The notes below the pieces were generated by a model, which saw only the letters and a list, made by a program, of their open reading frames with translations, did not search any database and had not been told where the DNA came from. The translations under genes were made by a program, and so were the position numbers. A stretch of DNA of 55,890 nucleotides from a virus. Taxonomy: Duplodnaviria; Heunggongvirae; Uroviricota; Caudoviricetes. The DNA is taken from IMG/VR virus record IMGVR_UViG_3300044719_000150; one strand, written 5' to 3'. Shown here piece after piece: positions 287 to 51,716 of this stretch (positions within the stretch are counted from its first letter, which is position 1; every line of letters starts with the position of its first letter).

Positions 287-588
287 GGCTCCGGTTCGTC
301 GTCCAGCTCGGGTCGGATCTCACGCCAGAGAGTTCTGCGGGCATGACCCTTAGCCATGCCCATCAGCCCCTCCAAGAGCTGCTGCTGGAACATCAGGTTC
401 TCACGCAGCGCGGGCAGCACCACGGGGATCTTCTCCCACGGCACCATGAACGAGGTGGGCATGTCCTCGGGCAGCTCGGCGGGGTCTCCCTCGTATACGG
501 CCTCGTAGTCGTTTCCTTCGGTGCGCGCCTGCTCCAGCTCGCGAATGACGCGCTTGTAGTGTTCGATCGAGTCCACAAGGTCACCCAT
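283..588 (-). CDS. Hypothetical protein
   Basis: 101-aa ORF overlapping the end of the Thg1 gene, same strand. Confidence 0.7.
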   Translation of the reverse strand: MGDLVDSIEHYKRVIRELEQARTEGNDYEAVYEGDPAELPEDMPTSFMVPWEKIPVVLPALRENLMFQQQLLEGLMGMAKGHARRTLWREIRPELDDEPEP

Positions 589-1408
589 GGAACAGCTCCG
601 GCCGCCCCAGGTCCCGCAGAACCTCCGGCGGGAAGTACTCCCGCACCGCCGCGTCCACCGTGGACTGTGACGGACCGCCGAATGAGGGCATCTCCGGAAT
701 ACGCCCCACCAGCCAGTTGTCCGGCTGCGCCTCGAACAGCGGCGCGGCGTCGAAGCGCCAGTAGGAGCCGGTGTCCGTGTCCGTGCGGGTGCAGACCTGT
801 CCGTAGCGGGTCGAGCGCGGGTAGTCCTCGAAGATCACCTGGCGGTCGCGCGCCAGCATCGTGATCATCTGCTCGCGGTTCTTGCCGTACAACTCAGAGA
901 CCGAGAAGTGCGCCTGCGCCGCCATCGACACCGCGTTGCGGTACGCGTCGCGCTGGCGCCACACGAAGTAGTTCGCCACCTCCACCGGGTTCGGCAGGGC
1001 GAACACCCGCGCGTCGAACGCCAGGTAGTGCGGCAGGTCATGCAGCTGGCGCTGAATCGCCAGGGACACCGAGGCGATACCGGCGCTTACCGAGGCGATC
1101 TTCTGTGTCCGGCCACCGAACCACGGCTGCTGCGTGAACTCCTCATAGGCGCACACCAACACGCTGATCTCATCGGACTGCTGATAGGCCAGCACCGCAC
1201 CCTGCACCTCGCGGCACAGATCCTGCATCACGTGGCCCATCATCTCCACGAAGCGCATGTCGTACGGTTTGTCCGCCGTCCGCAGCAGGGAGTGCGCCGC
1301 GCGCACGTCCACCCGGACCACGAAGGGCAGGTAGCGCGTCAGGGTGCTGCCGGTCGCGGCCTCGTACGCCTTCATCCGGTCGCCGAGCGCGGTCCCGTCA
1401 CCAGCCAT
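581..1408 (-). CDS. thg1: tRNA-His guanylyltransferase / Thg1-like 3'-5' polymerase
   Basis: DRMKAYE, VVRVD-x-R-x-x-H, YQQSDEISV, FGGRTQKIAS, AFDARVF, NYFVWRQRDAYRNAVS match the Thg1 family; start reassigned to ATG 1408. Confidence 0.9.
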   Translation of the reverse strand: MAGDGTALGDRMKAYEAATGSTLTRYLPFVVRVDVRAAHSLLRTADKPYDMRFVEMMGHVMQDLCREVQGAVLAYQQSDEISVLVCAYEEFTQQPWFGGRTQKIASVSAGIASVSLAIQRQLHDLPHYLAFDARVFALPNPVEVANYFVWRQRDAYRNAVSMAAQAHFSVSELYGKNREQMITMLARDRQVIFEDYPRSTRYGQVCTRTDTDTGSYWRFDAAPLFEAQPDNWLVGRIPEMPSFGGPSQSTVDAAVREYFPPEVLRDLGRPELFHG

Positions 1409-2234
1409 AGGGCAGCACATCCTTCGAACCGGCCATGGTCCGCACGCGCGGCTTCTCACCCCGGTAGCGGATGAAGATCGAACCCGCCATGGTATTCGCG
1501 TCGATAACGCCGTCCCCATCCCTGATGGTGATGCCGCCAGACATCGTCTTGGCGATGACACCGCCGAAGGCCTGCTGGATCTTGATGCTGCCAGCCATGG
1601 TGTTCGCGTAGAGAGTCCCCAAGGACCGCTCCACATGTATCGATCCGGATTCGGTCACGGCACGGACAGACGCGGCGGTGGCGATACGCACGGAGCCGCT
1701 CACGATGTTGGCGGTCACATGCCCGAGGTCTCCCTGAGTTTCGAGGTAGCCCGACGAGCAGTCGAACTTCACTTCCGAGCCGCTTGGCACCAGTGCCGAG
1801 ATGACGTACTTGGGGGCGCGCACGCCGTTCACGGTGGTGACACCGTTCGTGGTCTGGATGCTGACACCGCCGCGACTGGTATAGTTGCCGTCCTCCCGCA
1901 GCCGCAGGATGAGGCGGTCGCCGTCCTGTCGCAACTCCATGGCTTCGAAAGCCGGGTGTCGCGCGTCCAGCGGCTCGCCTTCGATCGTGACGCGCACCGA
2001 GGCGCGGGGCACATCGTCGCCGACCACCACAAGCCCCGTCGCAAGCGTCGAGACGTCGAGCTTGATCGGGCCGGGGAAGTTGGCGGTCAGGACGCGCTCG
2101 TGGGACGACCCGCGCGGCGGCGCGTCTTCCGGCTCGGAGGGCCGGGCATCCTCGGGCTCCTGATGAGGACGAGCATCCTGTGGGCCGAGCGCCGCGCCGA
2201 TGAGCCCTTCGACGAGCTTCAGGAAATCGGTCAA
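1398..2234 (-). CDS. DUF4097-like beta-strand repeat protein
   Basis: Repeated T(M/E)(A/S)G(S/G)I motifs in the C-terminal half; TTG start with AAGGGGG RBS. Confidence 0.7.
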   Translation of the reverse strand: MTDFLKLVEGLIGAALGPQDARPHQEPEDARPSEPEDAPPRGSSHERVLTANFPGPIKLDVSTLATGLVVVGDDVPRASVRVTIEGEPLDARHPAFEAMELRQDGDRLILRLREDGNYTSRGGVSIQTTNGVTTVNGVRAPKYVISALVPSGSEVKFDCSSGYLETQGDLGHVTANIVSGSVRIATAASVRAVTESGSIHVERSLGTLYANTMAGSIKIQQAFGGVIAKTMSGGITIRDGDGVIDANTMAGSIFIRYRGEKPRVRTMAGSKDVLPYGW

Positions 2235-4301: not shown

Positions 4302-4373
4302 AGTGATCTCCTCTCGGTCGGGGCTGTCACGGATACGTTAGTCCATGACTGGCGCAGTGTCAAGTGTGAAAAG

Positions 4374-4422
4374 CCCGGCGGCGCGGCCACCTTGGGTGAC
4401 GGATGCCTACGGAGCCGCCGGG
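4374..4422 (-). ncRNA. tigRNA-like unit with a degenerate first box, followed by TTTT; probably also terminates the RNA ligase transcript
   Basis: CCCGGCGG-ctcc-gtaggcatc-CG-tcac-CCA-aggtggccg-CG-CCGCCGGG-cTTTT. Confidence 0.65.
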
Positions 4423-4428
4423 ACGCTC

Positions 4429-5523
4429 TCACTCGTACTCGGTCGCGCCCTTGCGCTCCAGGTATGCGTCACTCACGAACTTCGCGATCATCCGGCCGCC
4501 GAGCACATCCGAGTACTGCTCGACCCACGGTCGCACCACGACGCCCTCGCGCAGCGTGCCAGGGTCGAGCCTGCTCTCCCGCTGGTTCGCCAGCCCCGCG
4601 ATCAAGTCGTAGTCGTACGGGCCCGTGTAGATGACCGGCGCAGTGGGAATACCGGCCGCCTTCGCGTCCTCCCATACGTCCAGCTGGTCGCGCCAGTATC
4701 GCCTGCCGTTCAGGCTCACAGCGATGTCGAACAGCACGTAGCCGAGCGTTTTGTCGCTGCTGGCGTCCGCGCCGTAGTGCAAGTCTTGCACGCCCTTGCC
4801 GTACACCTCGCCGAACAGGCCAATTGCGTCCACCTTCAGCTTGGCGCACAACTGCTGCGCGAACTCGAACAGCCTGTAACGGCGCACCGCGCGCCAGTAG
4901 ACGTTGCGCGTGTCCTCCTGGAGCGCCAGCGACTGTGCACCGACCCCCTTCGATGAGACGTACTCCCGCCCGTCGGCAGTCACCGTATAGAGGCAACACG
5001 TGCCGTGGATCTTCTCCGTGGCCGTCACCTGCATACCGGGCTGGAAGATCGTCGGGTAGCGCTTGATGTTCTCGATCTCGATCCAGCGCAGCAGGTCCGG
5101 CGCAGGCTCGACCTGACCGGCCATGCCGACCGGGATCGGCGGCACCCACTTGGTGATGCCAAGACGCTCGGCATAGTCCGCCTCGTGGCCCGGCGCGATG
5201 CTCGGGAAATTCTTGAACACGGCCCAGTCGATCGCTGCTGCCTTCGGGCGGCAGACGATGCCCTGCGACAACTCGCCGCGCAAGCGCACGGCCTTGACGC
5301 GGTTCTTATCCTTGCCCGCGAGCCTGCCGACCAGCCCCAGCTCCTCGATCAGCTCGGGCGGCAGGACGGCCTGCTCCGGGATGTAAAGCGCGTAGTCGCC
5401 CGTCTTGTAAACGCCCTTGCCGACGACGGCGCGGAACAGACCCACCTGGGCCAGCTCCAGCGCGTCCGCGTTGGGGTGCTCGAAGATCTCCAGGCGCTCG
5501 ATCGTGACCTTCAGGTCGCTCAA
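4429..5523 (-). CDS. RNA ligase, DRB0094/Rnl5 family
   Basis: N-terminal OB module HPNADALELAQV...YIPEQAVLP; motif I TEKIHGT; FGEVYG, EGVVV and AKFVSDAYL; TTG start at 5523 after AAAGGAGG. Confidence 0.9.
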   Translation of the reverse strand: MSDLKVTIERLEIFEHPNADALELAQVGLFRAVVGKGVYKTGDYALYIPEQAVLPPELIEELGLVGRLAGKDKNRVKAVRLRGELSQGIVCRPKAAAIDWAVFKNFPSIAPGHEADYAERLGITKWVPPIPVGMAGQVEPAPDLLRWIEIENIKRYPTIFQPGMQVTATEKIHGTCCLYTVTADGREYVSSKGVGAQSLALQEDTRNVYWRAVRRYRLFEFAQQLCAKLKVDAIGLFGEVYGKGVQDLHYGADASSDKTLGYVLFDIAVSLNGRRYWRDQLDVWEDAKAAGIPTAPVIYTGPYDYDLIAGLANQRESRLDPGTLREGVVVRPWVEQYSDVLGGRMIAKFVSDAYLERKGATEYE

Positions 5524-5734: not shown

Positions 5735-5738
5735 CGGA

Positions 5739-5750
5739 CTAACGTATCAC
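5739..5750 (-). promoter_or_regulatory. Recurrent motif GTGATACGTTAG
   Basis: Exact motif 4 nt upstream of unit 5693-5734 and about 20 nt before the divergent portal start. Confidence 0.7.
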
Positions 5751-17752: not shown

Positions 17753-17850
17753 CCGGGGCGGCGGAACATTGGGCGTCGCATGCGATATGGCCCCGGCCGG
17801 AGCCTGATGCCGGGCGCGGCTAGTAAGAGTCTCGGACGATCATTGGCCCG
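17752..17850 (-). ncRNA. Two tigRNA-like units antisense to the virion operon (17811-17850 degenerate; 17752-17797 canonical)
   Basis: CGGG-CCA-atgatcgtc-CG-agac-TCT-tactagccg-CG-CCCG and GCCGGGG-CCA-tatcgcatg-CG-acgc-CCA-atgttccgc-CG-CCCCGGC. Confidence 0.85.
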
Positions 17851-17856
17851 TCCCGC

Positions 17857-17868
17857 ATAACGTATCAC
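17857..17868 (-). promoter_or_regulatory. Recurrent motif GTGATACGTTAT
   Basis: One mismatch to consensus; 6 nt upstream of unit 17811-17850. Confidence 0.7.
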
Positions 17869-28245: not shown

Positions 28246-28291
28246 CCGGCGGCGCGGGCGCGTTGAGTTTCGCTTCAGTTTTGGCCACCGG
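28246..28291 (-). ncRNA. tigRNA-like unit antisense to the virion operon
   Basis: CCGGTGG-CCA-aaactgaag-CG-aaac-TCA-acgcgcccg-CG-CCGCCGG; 7-bp stem. Confidence 0.8.
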
Positions 28292-28297
28292 CAATGC

Positions 28298-28309
28298 ATA
28301 ACGTATCAC
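28298..28309 (-). promoter_or_regulatory. Recurrent motif GTGATACGTTAT
   Basis: One mismatch to consensus; 6 nt upstream of unit 28246-28291. Confidence 0.7.
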
Positions 28310-35193: not shown

Positions 35194-35352
35194 TTGCGGC
35201 GGTCTTGCTCTGGTTGTCGAGTGTGGGATGGCCGCAGCGGGGTCATCGTGGTCCTGCGTACGTATTATGGCTGCGGCGCGGTTATCCTGACCCTCATGAG
35301 CGGTATGGCCACAGCGTAAGATCCTTGGGATGCGGTGCGGGACTGGCTGCGG
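35194..35352 (-). ncRNA. Four-unit tigRNA-like (TIGR-type) array, 38-39 nt period
   Basis: ccgcag-CCA-gtcccgcac-CG-catc-CCA-aggatctta-CG-ctgtgg-CCA-taccgctca-TG-aggg-TCA-ggataaccg-CG-ccgcag-CCA-taatacgta-CG-cagga-CCA-cgatgaccc-CG-ctgcgg-CCA-tcccacact-CG-acaa-CCA-gagcaagac-CG-ccgcaa. Confidence 0.92.
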
Positions 35353-35364
35353 CTAACGTATCAC
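35353..35364 (-). promoter_or_regulatory. Recurrent motif GTGATACGTTAG abutting the four-unit array
   Basis: Exact motif; overlaps the TGA stop of 35361-35720. Confidence 0.7.
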
Positions 35365-35720: not shown

Positions 35721-36075
35721 GCTCTTGCTCCTCCGCTTGCCGTGCTGCCCGCTCCAGCAGTTCGACGACTTCCTCGGCCGTGCGCCCTGGAGTGTCGTTG
35801 AAAGCGTACAGGGTTTCAAAGCCTGGCAGCAGGCCGTTGACGAACACCCGCGCCATATCGGCGAGATCCATGCCTTCCGGAGTGTCGCCGATGCCGACCG
35901 GCGAGCCGGTGGTCGCGAGATTGATCGCGCCGACCGCGCACAGGCACGCGCCAGGAATCGCGTTGCCGCCGTCGTCGTACAACGTCCAGTCCTTCTGGAT
36001 GAAGCCGCGCACACGGATCAGCTCAGCCGCCCGCCAGAGCGCTTCCGGCAGAGTGCTGGCCAGCGCGTCAAGCAT
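35659..36075 (-). CDS. DUF6197-like actinophage protein
   Basis: AAELIRVRGFIQ...CAVGAI...FNDTPGRTAEEVVELLERAA. Confidence 0.7.
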   Translation of the reverse strand: MLDALASTLPEALWRAAELIRVRGFIQKDWTLYDDGGNAIPGACLCAVGAINLATTGSPVGIGDTPEGMDLADMARVFVNGLLPGFETLYAFNDTPGRTAEEVVELLERAARQAEEQERGEATGDPPGQRPDHDGDRG

Positions 36076-36955
36076 TGCGCTCCTCGTGCAGGCGCTTGCC
36101 CTCCAGCCACAGGTCGCGCAGGATCTCCTTGCTCATCTTGCGCATCGCGCGGGCGTGCTGGTGTCCGGCCGACAGTGGCGAACCGGCGAGGGCGGGCTTG
36201 CCGGAGGGGCCGCAGCGCTTGCAGTCCATCCGGTGCACGCCGTCCGCGTACTTGGCGCGGGTCTCGTCGTAGATGCGCCGATAGGGCGAGCAGTCGCAGC
36301 CGGACTGGTGCTTGACCGTCCCATCCTCCTGCTTGCAGCCCTTCTCCAACTGCTTGAGGCAAGCCTCCGCGATGAGGTAGACGCGCATCTTCGCGGCGTC
36401 ATTCCAGTTGGACTTGACGCCCTTGCGCCGGTGCGGGGCGATGCCGAGGTCGCCGGGCGGCAGGCCCTGTTCGCGCGGCACGACCTCCAGCGTCGCCGGA
36501 TCGATGCGCCACACGCCGTAGCCGCAGAAGCTCCACAGCTCGGAGACCAGGCGCGGCCGGTTGAAGATCGGATGCCAGTACGGGTCGCCGATCGCGGCGA
36601 GCAGCCGACCGCCCTGCTTGAGGCCGATGCCCTTGGTCTTCTTCACCCAGGGGCCGAGCGGATGCTGCTTGACGCCCTGCTCCAGGGATTTGACCGCGAG
36701 CGTCTCGGCCTCGCGCAGGGTGGCGACGATCTCCACGAGGCGCGCGACGGCCGGATGGCCCTCGTCCAGCCCGAACCCGCGCATCTCCCCGTCCTCGTCG
36801 GGCTCGGTGCGGGTGAACTGGCGCAGCCGGTTCTCGGTGGCGATGCGCAACTTCTCTAGGTCGGTCAGGGTGTCCGCGTGGACGGCGAGCATCGCGTCCT
36901 CGGGCCTTCGCGGGACAGGCTGGACAACGACAGGTTCCATGGTGGCTGTGGTCAT
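36068..36955 (-). CDS. tasA: TasA-like Nop-domain protein (IS110/Nop56-58 related) with no RuvC or HNH nuclease domain
   Basis: Coiled coil (LEKLRIATENRL), then KGIG...GRLLAAIGDP, LWSFCGYG, RRKGVKSNWN, YRRIYDETRAKY and HARAMRKMSKEILRDLW, resembling the IS110 C-terminal half; no N-terminal DEDD domain; CCA-N9-CG array directly upstream. Confidence 0.85.
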   Translation of the reverse strand: MTTATMEPVVVQPVPRRPEDAMLAVHADTLTDLEKLRIATENRLRQFTRTEPDEDGEMRGFGLDEGHPAVARLVEIVATLREAETLAVKSLEQGVKQHPLGPWVKKTKGIGLKQGGRLLAAIGDPYWHPIFNRPRLVSELWSFCGYGVWRIDPATLEVVPREQGLPPGDLGIAPHRRKGVKSNWNDAAKMRVYLIAEACLKQLEKGCKQEDGTVKHQSGCDCSPYRRIYDETRAKYADGVHRMDCKRCGPSGKPALAGSPLSAGHQHARAMRKMSKEILRDLWLEGKRLHEERNA

Positions 36956-36976
36956 GGGGTGCTCCCTTCGGTGAGT

Positions 36977-37084
36977 GCGGCGTTACGGCAATGGGTGGCG
37001 CTAGGCAGTGGCCGCGTGTGCTGAGTGGGCTCTGAAGCGGGTTTGGCGGCTGATGTCTGGTCTTGCGAAGGAGGTATGGCCGCG
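36977..37084 (-). ncRNA. Three-unit compact TIGR-type array directly upstream of the TasA-like gene
   Basis: cgcgg-CCA-tacctcctt-CG-caaga-CCA-gacatcagc-CG-CCA-aacccgctt-CA-gagc-CCA-ctcagcaca-CG-cgg-CCA-ctgcctag-CG-ccac-CCA-ttgccgtaa-CG-ccgc; 33-35 nt period. Confidence 0.85.
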
Positions 37085-37086
37085 CT

Positions 37087-37617: not shown

Positions 37618-37685
37618 AGTAAGTGACTCCTCCCTGGTTGCCTACGGTTAACGTACCATGGACAGCCAGGGAGGCGCAACATACG

Positions 37686-37982
37686 TTAGTCCCCGACGAC
37701 GGCGAGGATGTCGTACGGGTTGAGCAGCCGATACTTCTCCCCGCCGCGCTCGATCTCCTGGCCGACGCTGCGGTTGATCAGAACCGTCTGGCCGACCTGC
37801 ACCTCCGGCTTGACCAGCGCGCCGCCGTCCGTGATGCGGCCCGGCCCGGTCGCCACCACGCGCACCTCGGCCAGCGGGGCGACGCTCTGCGGCACAATCA
37901 GGCCGCCGACCTTGTGCTCCGCCTCGTTGACCGGCGCCAGCGTCAGGATGCGCTCTCCACACGGAGCGATGTCAATCGTCAT
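37686..37982 (-). CDS. groES: GroES/Cpn10-like co-chaperonin
   Basis: PCGERIL...GGLIVP...VVATGPG...EVQVGQTVL...GQEI...KYRLL...DILAVV. Confidence 0.9.
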   Translation of the reverse strand: MTIDIAPCGERILTLAPVNEAEHKVGGLIVPQSVAPLAEVRVVATGPGRITDGGALVKPEVQVGQTVLINRSVGQEIERGGEKYRLLNPYDILAVVGD

Positions 37983-43469: not shown

Positions 43470-43481
43470 GTGATACGTTAG
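43470..43481 (+). promoter_or_regulatory. Recurrent motif GTGATACGTTAG in the divergent intergenic region
   Basis: Exact motif between the leftward replication operon and rightward 43515. Confidence 0.65.
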
Positions 43482-43514
43482 TCCCATCAGCCAGCCACTG
43501 CGAGGAGGTCTGAC

Positions 43515-43730
43515 GTGAGCAAGAAGTACGAACTGTCGATCACCGGCCCCGACGCCGAGCCCGAAGTGCCCGGCATGCCGGAGGTGATGGAGATCAGCAA
43601 CGGGACCACGGCGTGTAACACGTACGTGCGCCTCGGGCAGCGCGGCAACGACGTCACCCTCAAGGCGCCGAACGGCCACAAGATCCGCTACGCGACCACG
43701 CCGGACCCCTGGGGCCAGCCCCTCGGCTAA
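43515..43730 (+). CDS. Small hypothetical protein
   Basis: GTG start after GAGGAGG; its stop lies inside a motif copy. Confidence 0.65.
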   Translation: MSKKYELSITGPDAEPEVPGMPEVMEISNGTTACNTYVRLGQRGNDVTLKAPNGHKIRYATTPDPWGQPLG

Positions 43731-43738
43731 CGTATCAC
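43727..43738 (+). promoter_or_regulatory. Motif copy CTAACGTATCAC (inverse orientation) abutting a guide array
   Basis: Exact match; TAACGT is also a TAnnnT hexamer. Confidence 0.55.
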
Positions 43739-43893
43739 CGGCGGCCAGGTTCTACTCGTCAGCCATTCCTCCTTCGCCGCCGAAGCACGACCACCGCCAG
43801 CCAGTTGCAGTGCGCAAGCCCAGTGATCGAACGCTGGCGATCCAAATCACACCGGCCACTTCGGTAGCGACACCCAAGATGAACCCGCCGGTG
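43739..43893 (+). ncRNA. Three-unit stem-closed tigRNA-like array (about 55-nt period)
   Basis: CGGCGG-CCA-ggttctact-CG-tcag-CCA-ttcctcctt-CG-CCGCCG; CGCCAG-CCA-gttgcagtg-CG-caagc-CCA-gtgatcgaa-CG-CTGGCG; CACCGG-CCA-cttcggtag-CG-acac-CCA-agatgaacc-CG-CCGGTG. Confidence 0.92.
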
Positions 43894-43934: not shown

Positions 43935-44642
43935 ATGCTCGAATCCGTTCAGAAGTACTTCGACGCCAAGGAAGCGGCTGAGGCCGAGCACACCAAGGCG
44001 ATTGGGGTCGCCGACACCGAGTACAACGCGACCGACCGGAGCGGCCCCAATCGCCGTATGCGCGCCCAGCGCCACAGTGTGGCGGGCACGCGCCGCGAGC
44101 TGGCCTTCGCCCAGGCGTGGCTGGACCTGCTCGACGCCGACGACCCGCTCGTCAGGTACATCGCCGCCAACTTCGACGGCTACAAGAGCTATGCGGACAT
44201 CGTCCTGCGCGAGCTGCCCGCCAACCTGTCGCGGCTGCGTCAGATCCGGCACGAGCAGGGCTGGTGCGGCGACTACAGCAGCTACCTGAACGAGGCGGTA
44301 CGCCTGGGTCTGATCGAGGACGACATGACCCCGCAGCGCCGTGCGCTGGACGACTGGGTCGTGCGCAACGTCGGCAGCGGCTACACGGAGCAGGCGACGC
44401 AGCTCGTGGACGCGATCATCGAGTCCGAGGCGATCCCGGCGCTGGACGTGGCCGCCGTACAGCAGGAGCAGCTGGCCCGCGTGGACGAGGCCTGGGGTCA
44501 CATCCGGGAGGTGGCCCCCGAGATGATCAACCGGGATGCCGCCGAGCACCTGTTCCGCCAGGCGGCGCGCACGATCATCCTCGGCGACGGCGCGCTGTTC
44601 GCGGACGCGGTCGCCGACCCGGAGCCGGTCGAGGCCGAGTAG
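43935..44642 (+). CDS. Hypothetical protein
   Basis: 235 aa after AAGGAGG. Confidence 0.75.
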   Translation: MLESVQKYFDAKEAAEAEHTKAIGVADTEYNATDRSGPNRRMRAQRHSVAGTRRELAFAQAWLDLLDADDPLVRYIAANFDGYKSYADIVLRELPANLSRLRQIRHEQGWCGDYSSYLNEAVRLGLIEDDMTPQRRALDDWVVRNVGSGYTEQATQLVDAIIESEAIPALDVAAVQQEQLARVDEAWGHIREVAPEMINRDAAEHLFRQAARTIILGDGALFADAVADPEPVEAE

Positions 44643-44653
44643 CACCCGAGCTT

Positions 44654-44750
44654 CACCGGCTACACGACCGAGGGGGCCCAACCCCCTTTCGCCGGTGGCC
44701 AGATGTTGGCGGCTAATCAGTCGGCGTGATCCAAACCTCGACCGCCGCCG
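44654..44750 (+). ncRNA. Two tigRNA-like units with CTA as the first box
   Basis: CACCGG-CTA-cacgaccga-GG-gggc-CCA-acccccttt-CG-CCGGTG and TGGCGG-CTA-atcagtcgg-CG-tgat-CCA-aacctcgac-CG-CCGCCG. Confidence 0.8.
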
Positions 44751-44865
44751 CGCCGTAAGCCCCGAGGAGTCCACCACGCCTCGGGGCTATACGGCTGTCG
44801 GTGTTCCGTGCTTGAATTGCTCCTGCGTACCCGCGCTGCGGCGCCACATCGCAAGGAGTATGTGC

Positions 44866-49713: not shown

Positions 49714-49722
49714 GTACGAGGA

Positions 49723-49734
49723 TTAACGTAGCAC
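49723..49734 (-). promoter_or_regulatory. Recurrent motif GTGCTACGTTAA
   Basis: 9 nt upstream of unit 49667-49713. Confidence 0.65.
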
Positions 49735-50161: not shown

Positions 50162-50249
50162 GGTTCTCCTCTCGTCGGGGTAGGGTTGCACTAACGTATC
50201 CCGTGCGCTATGTTTGCGGCAATCCGCACTCACAGGGAGGAGACAACAC

Positions 50250-51472: not shown

Positions 51473-51703
51473 GTGCATTTCTTGGCACTGGCATATATTG
51501 CTTGGGTGACCGGCATGGTCCTGACCATGAAGTGGCTGGTGAACAATGTTTACCGGGATGATCTGGAGGGCCTAGCCCGGCGCCTGCTCGTGGTCATGAT
51601 GTACGCCATGGCCATCCTGTTCCCGCTCACCTGGGCCTGGGTCGCCGCCGCGCGCACCCCGCGCCTGATCCGGCGTCTGCGCCCTTACCAGCGCAGGCAC
51701 TAA
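51473..51703 (+). CDS. Small two-TM membrane protein
   Basis: GTG start after AAAGGAG; hydrophobic segments. Confidence 0.65.
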   Translation: MHFLALAYIAWVTGMVLTMKWLVNNVYRDDLEGLARRLLVVMMYAMAILFPLTWAWVAAARTPRLIRRLRPYQRRH

Positions 51704-51716
51704 CGTAGCCTGATAA

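Follow-up and report, generated by a model that had tools for sequence, protein, structure and literature searches.

Three probable stem-loop tigRNA genes in an intergenic gap of a phage genome, 6.8 kb from a TasA-type gene

Units of TIGR loci carry two short boxes, of which box C reads CCA and box D UG (Faure et al., 2025; PMC12045711). For stem-loop TIGR arrays, variable palindromic stems and a likeness to snoRNAs have been described (PMC12045711; bioRxiv 10.64898/2026.09.09.750476), and the published nuclease-free TasA proteins comprise PlTasA from a Peromyscus leucopus gut contig, BlTasA and a Minisyncoccota TasA (PMC12045711; bioRxiv 10.64898/2026.09.09.750476; 10.64898/2026.08.11.744272). 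TasA proteins act as RNA-guided transcriptional repressors, and a CUU motif at the stem base, which is frequent but not strictly defining, marks the processing site of the guide (Xu et al., 2026; bioRxiv 10.64898/2026.09.09.750476). [quoted passage not shown] Dual-repeat TIGR arrays such as those of TaTasR (PDB 9mty) and SpTasH (PDB 9w04) are built from conserved edge and loop repeats, yield a tigRNA of constant length (36 nt) and are accompanied by a partner protein with a nuclease domain. Published surveys of TIGR loci examined up to 10 kb around tas.

In the phage genome analysed here (the window, that is the whole stretch of 55,890 nucleotides of virus record IMGVR_UViG_3300044719_000150), a 204-nt gap between a 71-aa gene and a 235-aa gene holds three head-to-tail units on the plus strand, all with the layout of a 6-nt arm, CCA, 9 nt, CG, 4-5 nt, CCA, 9 nt, CG and the complementary arm. 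These three units are very probably stem-loop tigRNA genes that form a satellite array of a phage TIGR-TasA system. Variable palindromic stems, a CCA box C and a resemblance to box C/D RNAs have all been published before, and the array adds a further example, not a new kind. The presumed partner gene and the features of the region are the following.

36068-36955, minus strand: tasA, encoding a 295-aa, nuclease-free Tas protein (P0001), the presumed guide partner
43472-43484, plus strand: perfect copy of the motif GATACGTTAGTCC, upstream of the 71-aa gene
43515-43730, plus strand: 71-aa gene directly upstream of the array, conserved in the related loci L001, L002 and L019
43724-43736, minus strand: inverse copy of the 13-bp promoter-core motif, overlapping the stop codon of the 71-aa gene
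43739-43782, plus strand: probable tigRNA unit 1, with arms CGGCGG/CCGCCG, box C CCA, spacer A GGTTCTACT, CG, the loop TCAG, the second CCA, spacer B TTCCTCCTT and box D CG (35.6 bits)
43783-43794, plus strand: linker between units 1 and 2, 12 nt, A/C-rich, unconserved
43795-43839, plus strand: probable tigRNA unit 2, with arms CGCCAG/CTGGCG, spacers GTTGCAGTG and GTGATCGAA and a 5-nt loop (35.7 bits)
43840-43849, plus strand: linker between units 2 and 3, 10 nt, unconserved
43850-43893, plus strand: probable tigRNA unit 3, with arms CACCGG/CCGGTG and spacers CTTCGGTAG and AGATGAACC (39.6 bits)
43935-44642, plus strand: 235-aa gene of unknown family, with guide units on both flanks, absent from the related loci L005 and L019
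44654-44697, plus strand: probable tigRNA unit 4, with arms CACCGG/CCGGTG as in unit 3 and the variant boxes CTA and GG (18 bits)
44707-44750, plus strand: probable tigRNA unit 5, with arms TGGCGG/CCGCCG including one G-U pair and box CTA (25.1 bits)
44759-44787, plus strand: G+C-rich hairpin after the last unit, read from the sequence as probably a terminator

The three pairs of arms are exactly those of the original prediction, which had placed them directly next to the boxes with unconserved linkers in between, and all of this held: units 1, 2 and 3 each form six of six Watson-Crick arm pairs, an invariant CCA abuts every 5' arm and a CG every 3' arm, and the linkers of 12 and 10 nt have no common motif. 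The stems stop at 6 bp, to which the boxes themselves can add one C:G pair. The array shares with published stem-loop TIGR arrays the two 9-nt spacers, each with a CCA on its 5' side and a two-base box D on its 3' side, the linkers between units, and variable complementary arms in which conservation is limited to the box-adjacent bases; it shares with published TasA systems a phage-borne, nuclease-free Tas protein with a coiled coil and a Nop-like domain. On the other hand, box D is CG here and UG there, the stem is short with 6 bp, and the array is separated from tasA by 6.8 kb, being encoded on the other strand as part of a different operon. Furthermore, about 17 guide loci, of which the array is one, are spread over the window, many of them after the phage's own promoter-core motif. 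CTT, the DNA form of the published CUU motif, directly precedes one of the 26 window units (the unit at 44654) and none of the three in the array.

With the dual-repeat arrays of TaTasR and SpTasH the units have the tandem-spacer logic, the CCA, the 9-nt spacers and the protein fold in common, whereas the arms vary here and the protein has no nuclease domain. A conserved edge repeat of the dual-repeat type is absent from the array, as the three units carry three different arms and the linkers are unconserved. Arrays adjacent to tas are organized more compactly, with a period of 35-38 nt (window positions 36975-37085 and 35194-35352, minus strand; L019:9723-9976), and neighbouring units share an edge (CG-CCGCC-A or CG-CGGCC-A), which is at once the 3' arm of the preceding and the 5' arm of the following unit; L019 holds seven such shared-edge units. 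By its sequence arrangement, this compact form falls between the dual-repeat and the stem-loop type of array. In many relatives (L023-L089, about position 4350-4530 of each locus) guide units lie on the coding strand inside the tas coding sequence, as published for BlTasA (Xu et al., 2026; bioRxiv 10.64898/2026.09.09.750476), and the tasA of the window is without an intragenic unit. The bridge RNAs of IS110/IS621 elements are also comparable in having two guide segments and a partner with a related RNA-binding domain (Foldseek E about 1e-3), yet there one two-loop RNA per element accompanies an active RuvC-Tnp recombinase, while here many small units occur and a catalytic domain is lacking.

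The presumed partner protein P0001 matches PHROG family phrog_4285 (PHROG 4285), labelled 'transposase', with 3e-90, and a Pfam search gave no match at E = 0.1. A profile built from 40 homologues of P0001 matches TaTasR (PDB 9mty, entitled 'Structure of TIGR-TasR in complex with tigRNA and target DNA') at 5e-21 and TasH at 6e-9. When the AlphaFold model of P0001 (pLDDT 89) was compared with known structures by Foldseek, TasR and TasH took ranks 1-11 with TM values of 0.55-0.61, followed by the IS621 recombinase; archaeal Nop5 was matched weakly at ranks 23, 27 and 45 with a probability of about 0.5. The N-terminus of the model consists of two long helices, and a beta-rich, RuvC- or HNH-like domain is not present. 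The profile match to TasR, the TasR/TasH-like modelled fold and the missing RuvC or HNH domain together assign P0001, at the level of sequence and model, to the nuclease-free TasA type. The link between Tas and the Nop domain that the original prediction had drawn is thus matched by a nuclease-free Tas protein of Nop fold encoded 6.8 kb away. The P0001 family, with 1337 matches, is present in prophages across Actinomycetota.

Within the window, a scan which required the boxes and left the stem free returned 23 matches compared with 3.19 in 100 Markov shuffles, and matches with at least five of six flank pairs numbered 15 compared with 0.12 in the shuffles, 12 of them being fully paired. When 17 window units are aligned, 97% of the stem cells pair, five of the six pairs change on both sides, and pairing falls to 28-61% when the 3' arm is slid by 1-3 columns; CCA and CG form invariant or nearly invariant columns. 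The two box-adjacent stem pairs are almost fixed as G-C, so that covariation is confined to the outer four pairs. Two variable stretches of 9 nt are present in each of the 26 window units. The folding energy of the 179-nt stretch, on the other hand, is no better than that of shuffles (z = -0.06), nor would a better one be expected of 6-bp stems around a guide region of 32 unpaired nt; the evidence for the stems thus comes from comparison, not from thermodynamics. As the stems contain five G-U and five A-C combinations and thus do not discriminate between the strands, the strand call is based on the order of the boxes and the orientation of the motifs.

Covariation in homologous loci, scored with a covariance model, had been proposed as the check on the stems, and the outcome is positive both in 54 viral loci and in the orthologous slots considered below. 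From 68 viral loci encoding the TasA family that were fetched, the 54 non-redundant ones were searched with a covariance model built from the window units, which gave 154 matches, all 154 on the tas strand, with 99.4% of stem cells paired. Since a covariance model rewards pairing, the box-only scan was repeated on the 54 loci and returned 286 matches on the tas strand versus 17 on the other strand. All six flank pairs form in 231 of these 286 matches, compared with at most six matches when the 3' flank is slid, and the 231 fully paired matches comprise 120 distinct arm sequences. As the boxes alone defined the matches, this result is free of stem ascertainment and provides strong evidence at the sequence level that selection acts on the pairing of the arms, not on a particular sequence. 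In the 54 relatives, nearly all units located up to 4 kb from tas have the same orientation as this gene.

The gene order around the array is kept in four relatives (L001, L002, L005 and L019), in which the slot contains 0, 3, 3 or 5 units. In L001, whose TasA is 75% identical, the slot behind the small gene likewise contains units, two with arms TGGCGG/CCGCCA and CGCCAG/CTGGCG and a third that starts with ACCGG at the contig end. The slot of L005 holds three and that of L019 five units as continuous arrays, both closed by G+C-rich hairpins, and in L002, which has no units, the small gene leads directly into the downstream gene's ribosome-binding site. The arms of unit 2 recur in the second unit of L001 and of L005, those of unit 3 in L019 unit 4 and in the window unit at 44654. 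Across the matched units of L001, L005 and L019, stem bases are alike at 123 of 132 positions (93%) and spacer bases at 38 of 198 (19%, about random), a comparison that is partly circular as the matching of L019 units used arm identity in part; the strictly positional comparison of the window with L001 gives 22 of 24 stem bases and 8 of 36 spacer bases. Changes in the arms are compensatory: a C-G pair of unit 1 is U-A in L001, and CGCCAG/CTGGCG of unit 2 reads CGCCGA/TCGGCG in L019 (its unit 3), two pairs having changed on both sides. That the stems mark a selected RNA structure, as originally proposed, is borne out by different arms with matched pairing, by the covariation in 54 loci and by these compensatory changes. 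Among cultured phages, blastn returned no match to the region, and 13 metagenome loci found via the downstream single-strand annealing protein (43-57% identity) carry no units.

At four-fold synonymous sites, tasA of the window and of L001 is 61% identical compared with 45% expected from composition; spacers diverging at the synonymous rate should be about 48% identical by position, and the observed value is at or below random (p ~ 0.001, 36 sites). In this small sample the turnover of spacers seems to exceed that of neutral sites, with the arms of the units staying fixed. A possible, though rather doubtful, reading is that spacers would be renewed within position-specific scaffolds that are themselves preserved, or that the guides would be under strong diversifying selection; it is drawn from the arms being kept at 93% and the spacers at 19% between phages with 62-75% identical TasA, from the variable unit number and from the gene located between units with identical arms. 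The latter two units (43850-43893 and 44654-44697) flank the 235-aa gene with unrelated spacers, and relatives of this gene were not found in viral contigs. The identical arms on both flanks and the continuous array devoid of the gene in L005 and L019 suggest an insertion of the 235-aa gene into the array, or its loss, at the CACCGG/CCGGTG unit. A further gene of the window (581-1636, minus strand) encodes a Thg1-like tRNA-His guanylyltransferase (PF04446, 9e-22; phrog_4717, 6e-62).

Units of the same design number about 26 across the 56-kb window (171-53448, both strands), up to 35 kb from tasA. The original prediction had counted about 28; by the definition used in this analysis there are 26. 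All 26 are intergenic and many directly follow a promoter-core motif; some are oriented antisense inside the block of structural genes (17753-17852 and 28247-28290). The 13-bp motif GATACGTTAGTCC has 19 matches with up to three mismatches in the window compared with 6.9 expected, and its sites include the following.

272-284, 2304-2316, 4332-4344, 5736-5748, 17854-17866, 28295-28307 and 35350-35362: GATACGTTAGTCC motif sites, first part of the window
37680-37692, 43472-43484, 43724-43736, 49720-49732, 50188-50200 and 51697-51709: GATACGTTAGTCC motif sites, rest of the window

At no fewer than eight loci a guide unit of the same orientation follows the motif directly. The motif can be read as an extended -10 element (TGnTACGTT), with a predicted start at about the first stem base. 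By its sequence and position, the perfect copy at 43472-43484 is likely the promoter of a transcript through the array. The inverse copy, read on the plus strand, presents TAACGT, a -10-like hexamer of the form TANNNT, 5 nt before unit 1, which is a second candidate promoter.

DNA targets were sought for the guides in two geometries, in which either spacer B or spacer A is reverse-complemented and A always comes first; gaps of 0-2 and no more than three mismatches of 18 were allowed, and both geometries were included because the published accounts conflict ("cut 3' to" versus "cleaved 5' to"). In the window, this search returned only trivial overlaps with the units themselves, and on both strands of 18 related loci (282 kb) it returned 17 matches, 16 with three mismatches and one with two, compared with about 15 by chance. 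Guides of the prophage relative L091, compared with the complete Actinomadura chromosome in which it resides (four in one geometry, one in the other, a small sample), gave no match at 2-3 mismatches. The 9-mers of single spacers are rarer elsewhere in the window than random window 9-mers (30 versus 82.5 +/- 15.7). A reading of this deficit as self-avoidance of the spacers was rejected, as the spacers are AT-richer than the genome (GC 50-55% versus 66%). The spacers TTCCTCCTT (43765-43773) and TACCTCCTT (37068-37076, minus strand) are complementary to the strong Shine-Dalgarno sequence AAGGAGG, which for two of 52 spacers may be chance.

The likeness to archaeal box C/D sRNAs, with which the units had originally been compared, extends to the order of the elements (terminal stem, C, guide, D', C', guide, D) and to a partner with a related Nop fold that weakly matches Nop5, and does not extend to the motifs themselves. 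Neither RUGAUGA nor CUGA occurs in the three units, a chance CTGA is present in one of the 26 window units, a K-turn is missing, there is no Rfam match even at E = 10, and the guides have 9 nt and, by homology, would target DNA. It is thus extremely improbable that the units are true box C/D sRNA-type guides, which would direct RNA 2'-O-methylation via a Nop5/fibrillarin/L7Ae-like complex, and they are instead assigned to the tigRNAs; P0001 also is far nearer to the DNA-acting TasR and TasH than to Nop5, and published TasR does not act on RNA substrates. Equally structured elements could in principle function at the DNA level, as inverted repeats bound by a protein or used in recombination, or as miniature mobile palindromes spreading through intergenic gaps, and dispersal over intergenic gaps on both strands, the slot number of 0, 3, 3 or 5 among relatives and the gene between units with identical arms would agree with this. 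However, a sequence-specific DNA-binding protein would need conserved arms, whereas 120 different ones occur, the units are strongly asymmetric relative to tas (286 versus 17) and follow promoter motifs in a fixed orientation, and their conserved parts are exactly the published RNA boxes, which makes such DNA elements very improbable.

The location between two co-oriented genes, with a terminator-like hairpin at 44759-44787 behind the last unit, is also what ordinary intercistronic hairpins (attenuators, terminators or mRNA stabilizers with no guide function) would show. A 6-bp stem with a 32-nt loop and without a U-tract is no terminator, though, CCA and CG boxes with exact 9-nt spacing are conserved across 54 loci, and L002 has the same gene pair without the array, which is thus not needed for the operon; a role as plain hairpins is therefore very unlikely. 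That the units are decaying relics derived from tigRNAs which TasA no longer uses is distinctly unlikely: the distance from tasA and the opposite strand, the spacers unconserved between relatives and the lack of a detected target would be in line with decay, but all three units keep six of six stem pairs, both CCA, both CG and exact 9-nt spacers. Moreover, orthologous stems are 93% conserved with compensatory changes next to randomized spacers, and stems kept while spacers are randomized indicate purifying selection on the scaffold.

For the three units as tigRNA genes, expression, processing, dimer binding, DNA targeting and repression are deduced from the published homologues. The array would be transcribed on the plus strand, either by read-through from the promoter motif at 43472 or from a start at TAACGT next to unit 1. 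The 6-nt arms of each unit would form the stem, extended by one more pair between the C of CCA and the G of CG, and the closed stem would present the two 9-nt spacers in a region of roughly 32 nt. As the arms would need only complementarity and would not be read by sequence, they can differ between units and covary. A TasA dimer would bind both box C/D pairs, that of the stem and that of the internal loop, and the linkers would be trimmed by host RNases. At an 18-bp DNA site, each of the two spacers would then pair with a different strand, and the outcome would be binding, most likely transcriptional repression, and no cleavage.

A TasA homologue approximately 50% identical to P0001 is encoded by Cluster A1 mycobacteriophages, which are cultured on Mycobacterium smegmatis; 83 Mycobacterium phage records match, with the homologues annotated as 'transposase' or hypothetical. 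In Mycobacterium phage Bethlehem (NC_009878.1; L021:5223-5519), a 335-nt gap upstream of the homologue, gp71, contains at least 4-5 stem-loop dual-spacer units with stems of 8-11 bp and CTT at several stem bases. Cluster A1 phages of M. smegmatis thus offer a tractable system in which the function of the TasA family can be tested.

For the phage analysed here, the hairpins are very probably guide-RNA genes tied to a partner protein, and not incidental palindromes, and they add an actinophage example in which a guide array is located in another operon, away from tasA. Guide cassettes driven by their own promoters, if this is what the motif upstream of many units provides, bear on a question left open by Xu et al. 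(2026; bioRxiv 10.64898/2026.09.09.750476). Stems that are kept, spacers that are replaced and units that are gained or lost constitute a small data set on the evolution of stem-loop TIGR arrays, which bears on how spacers are acquired. The guides could serve to silence the host, rival elements or the phage's own genes.
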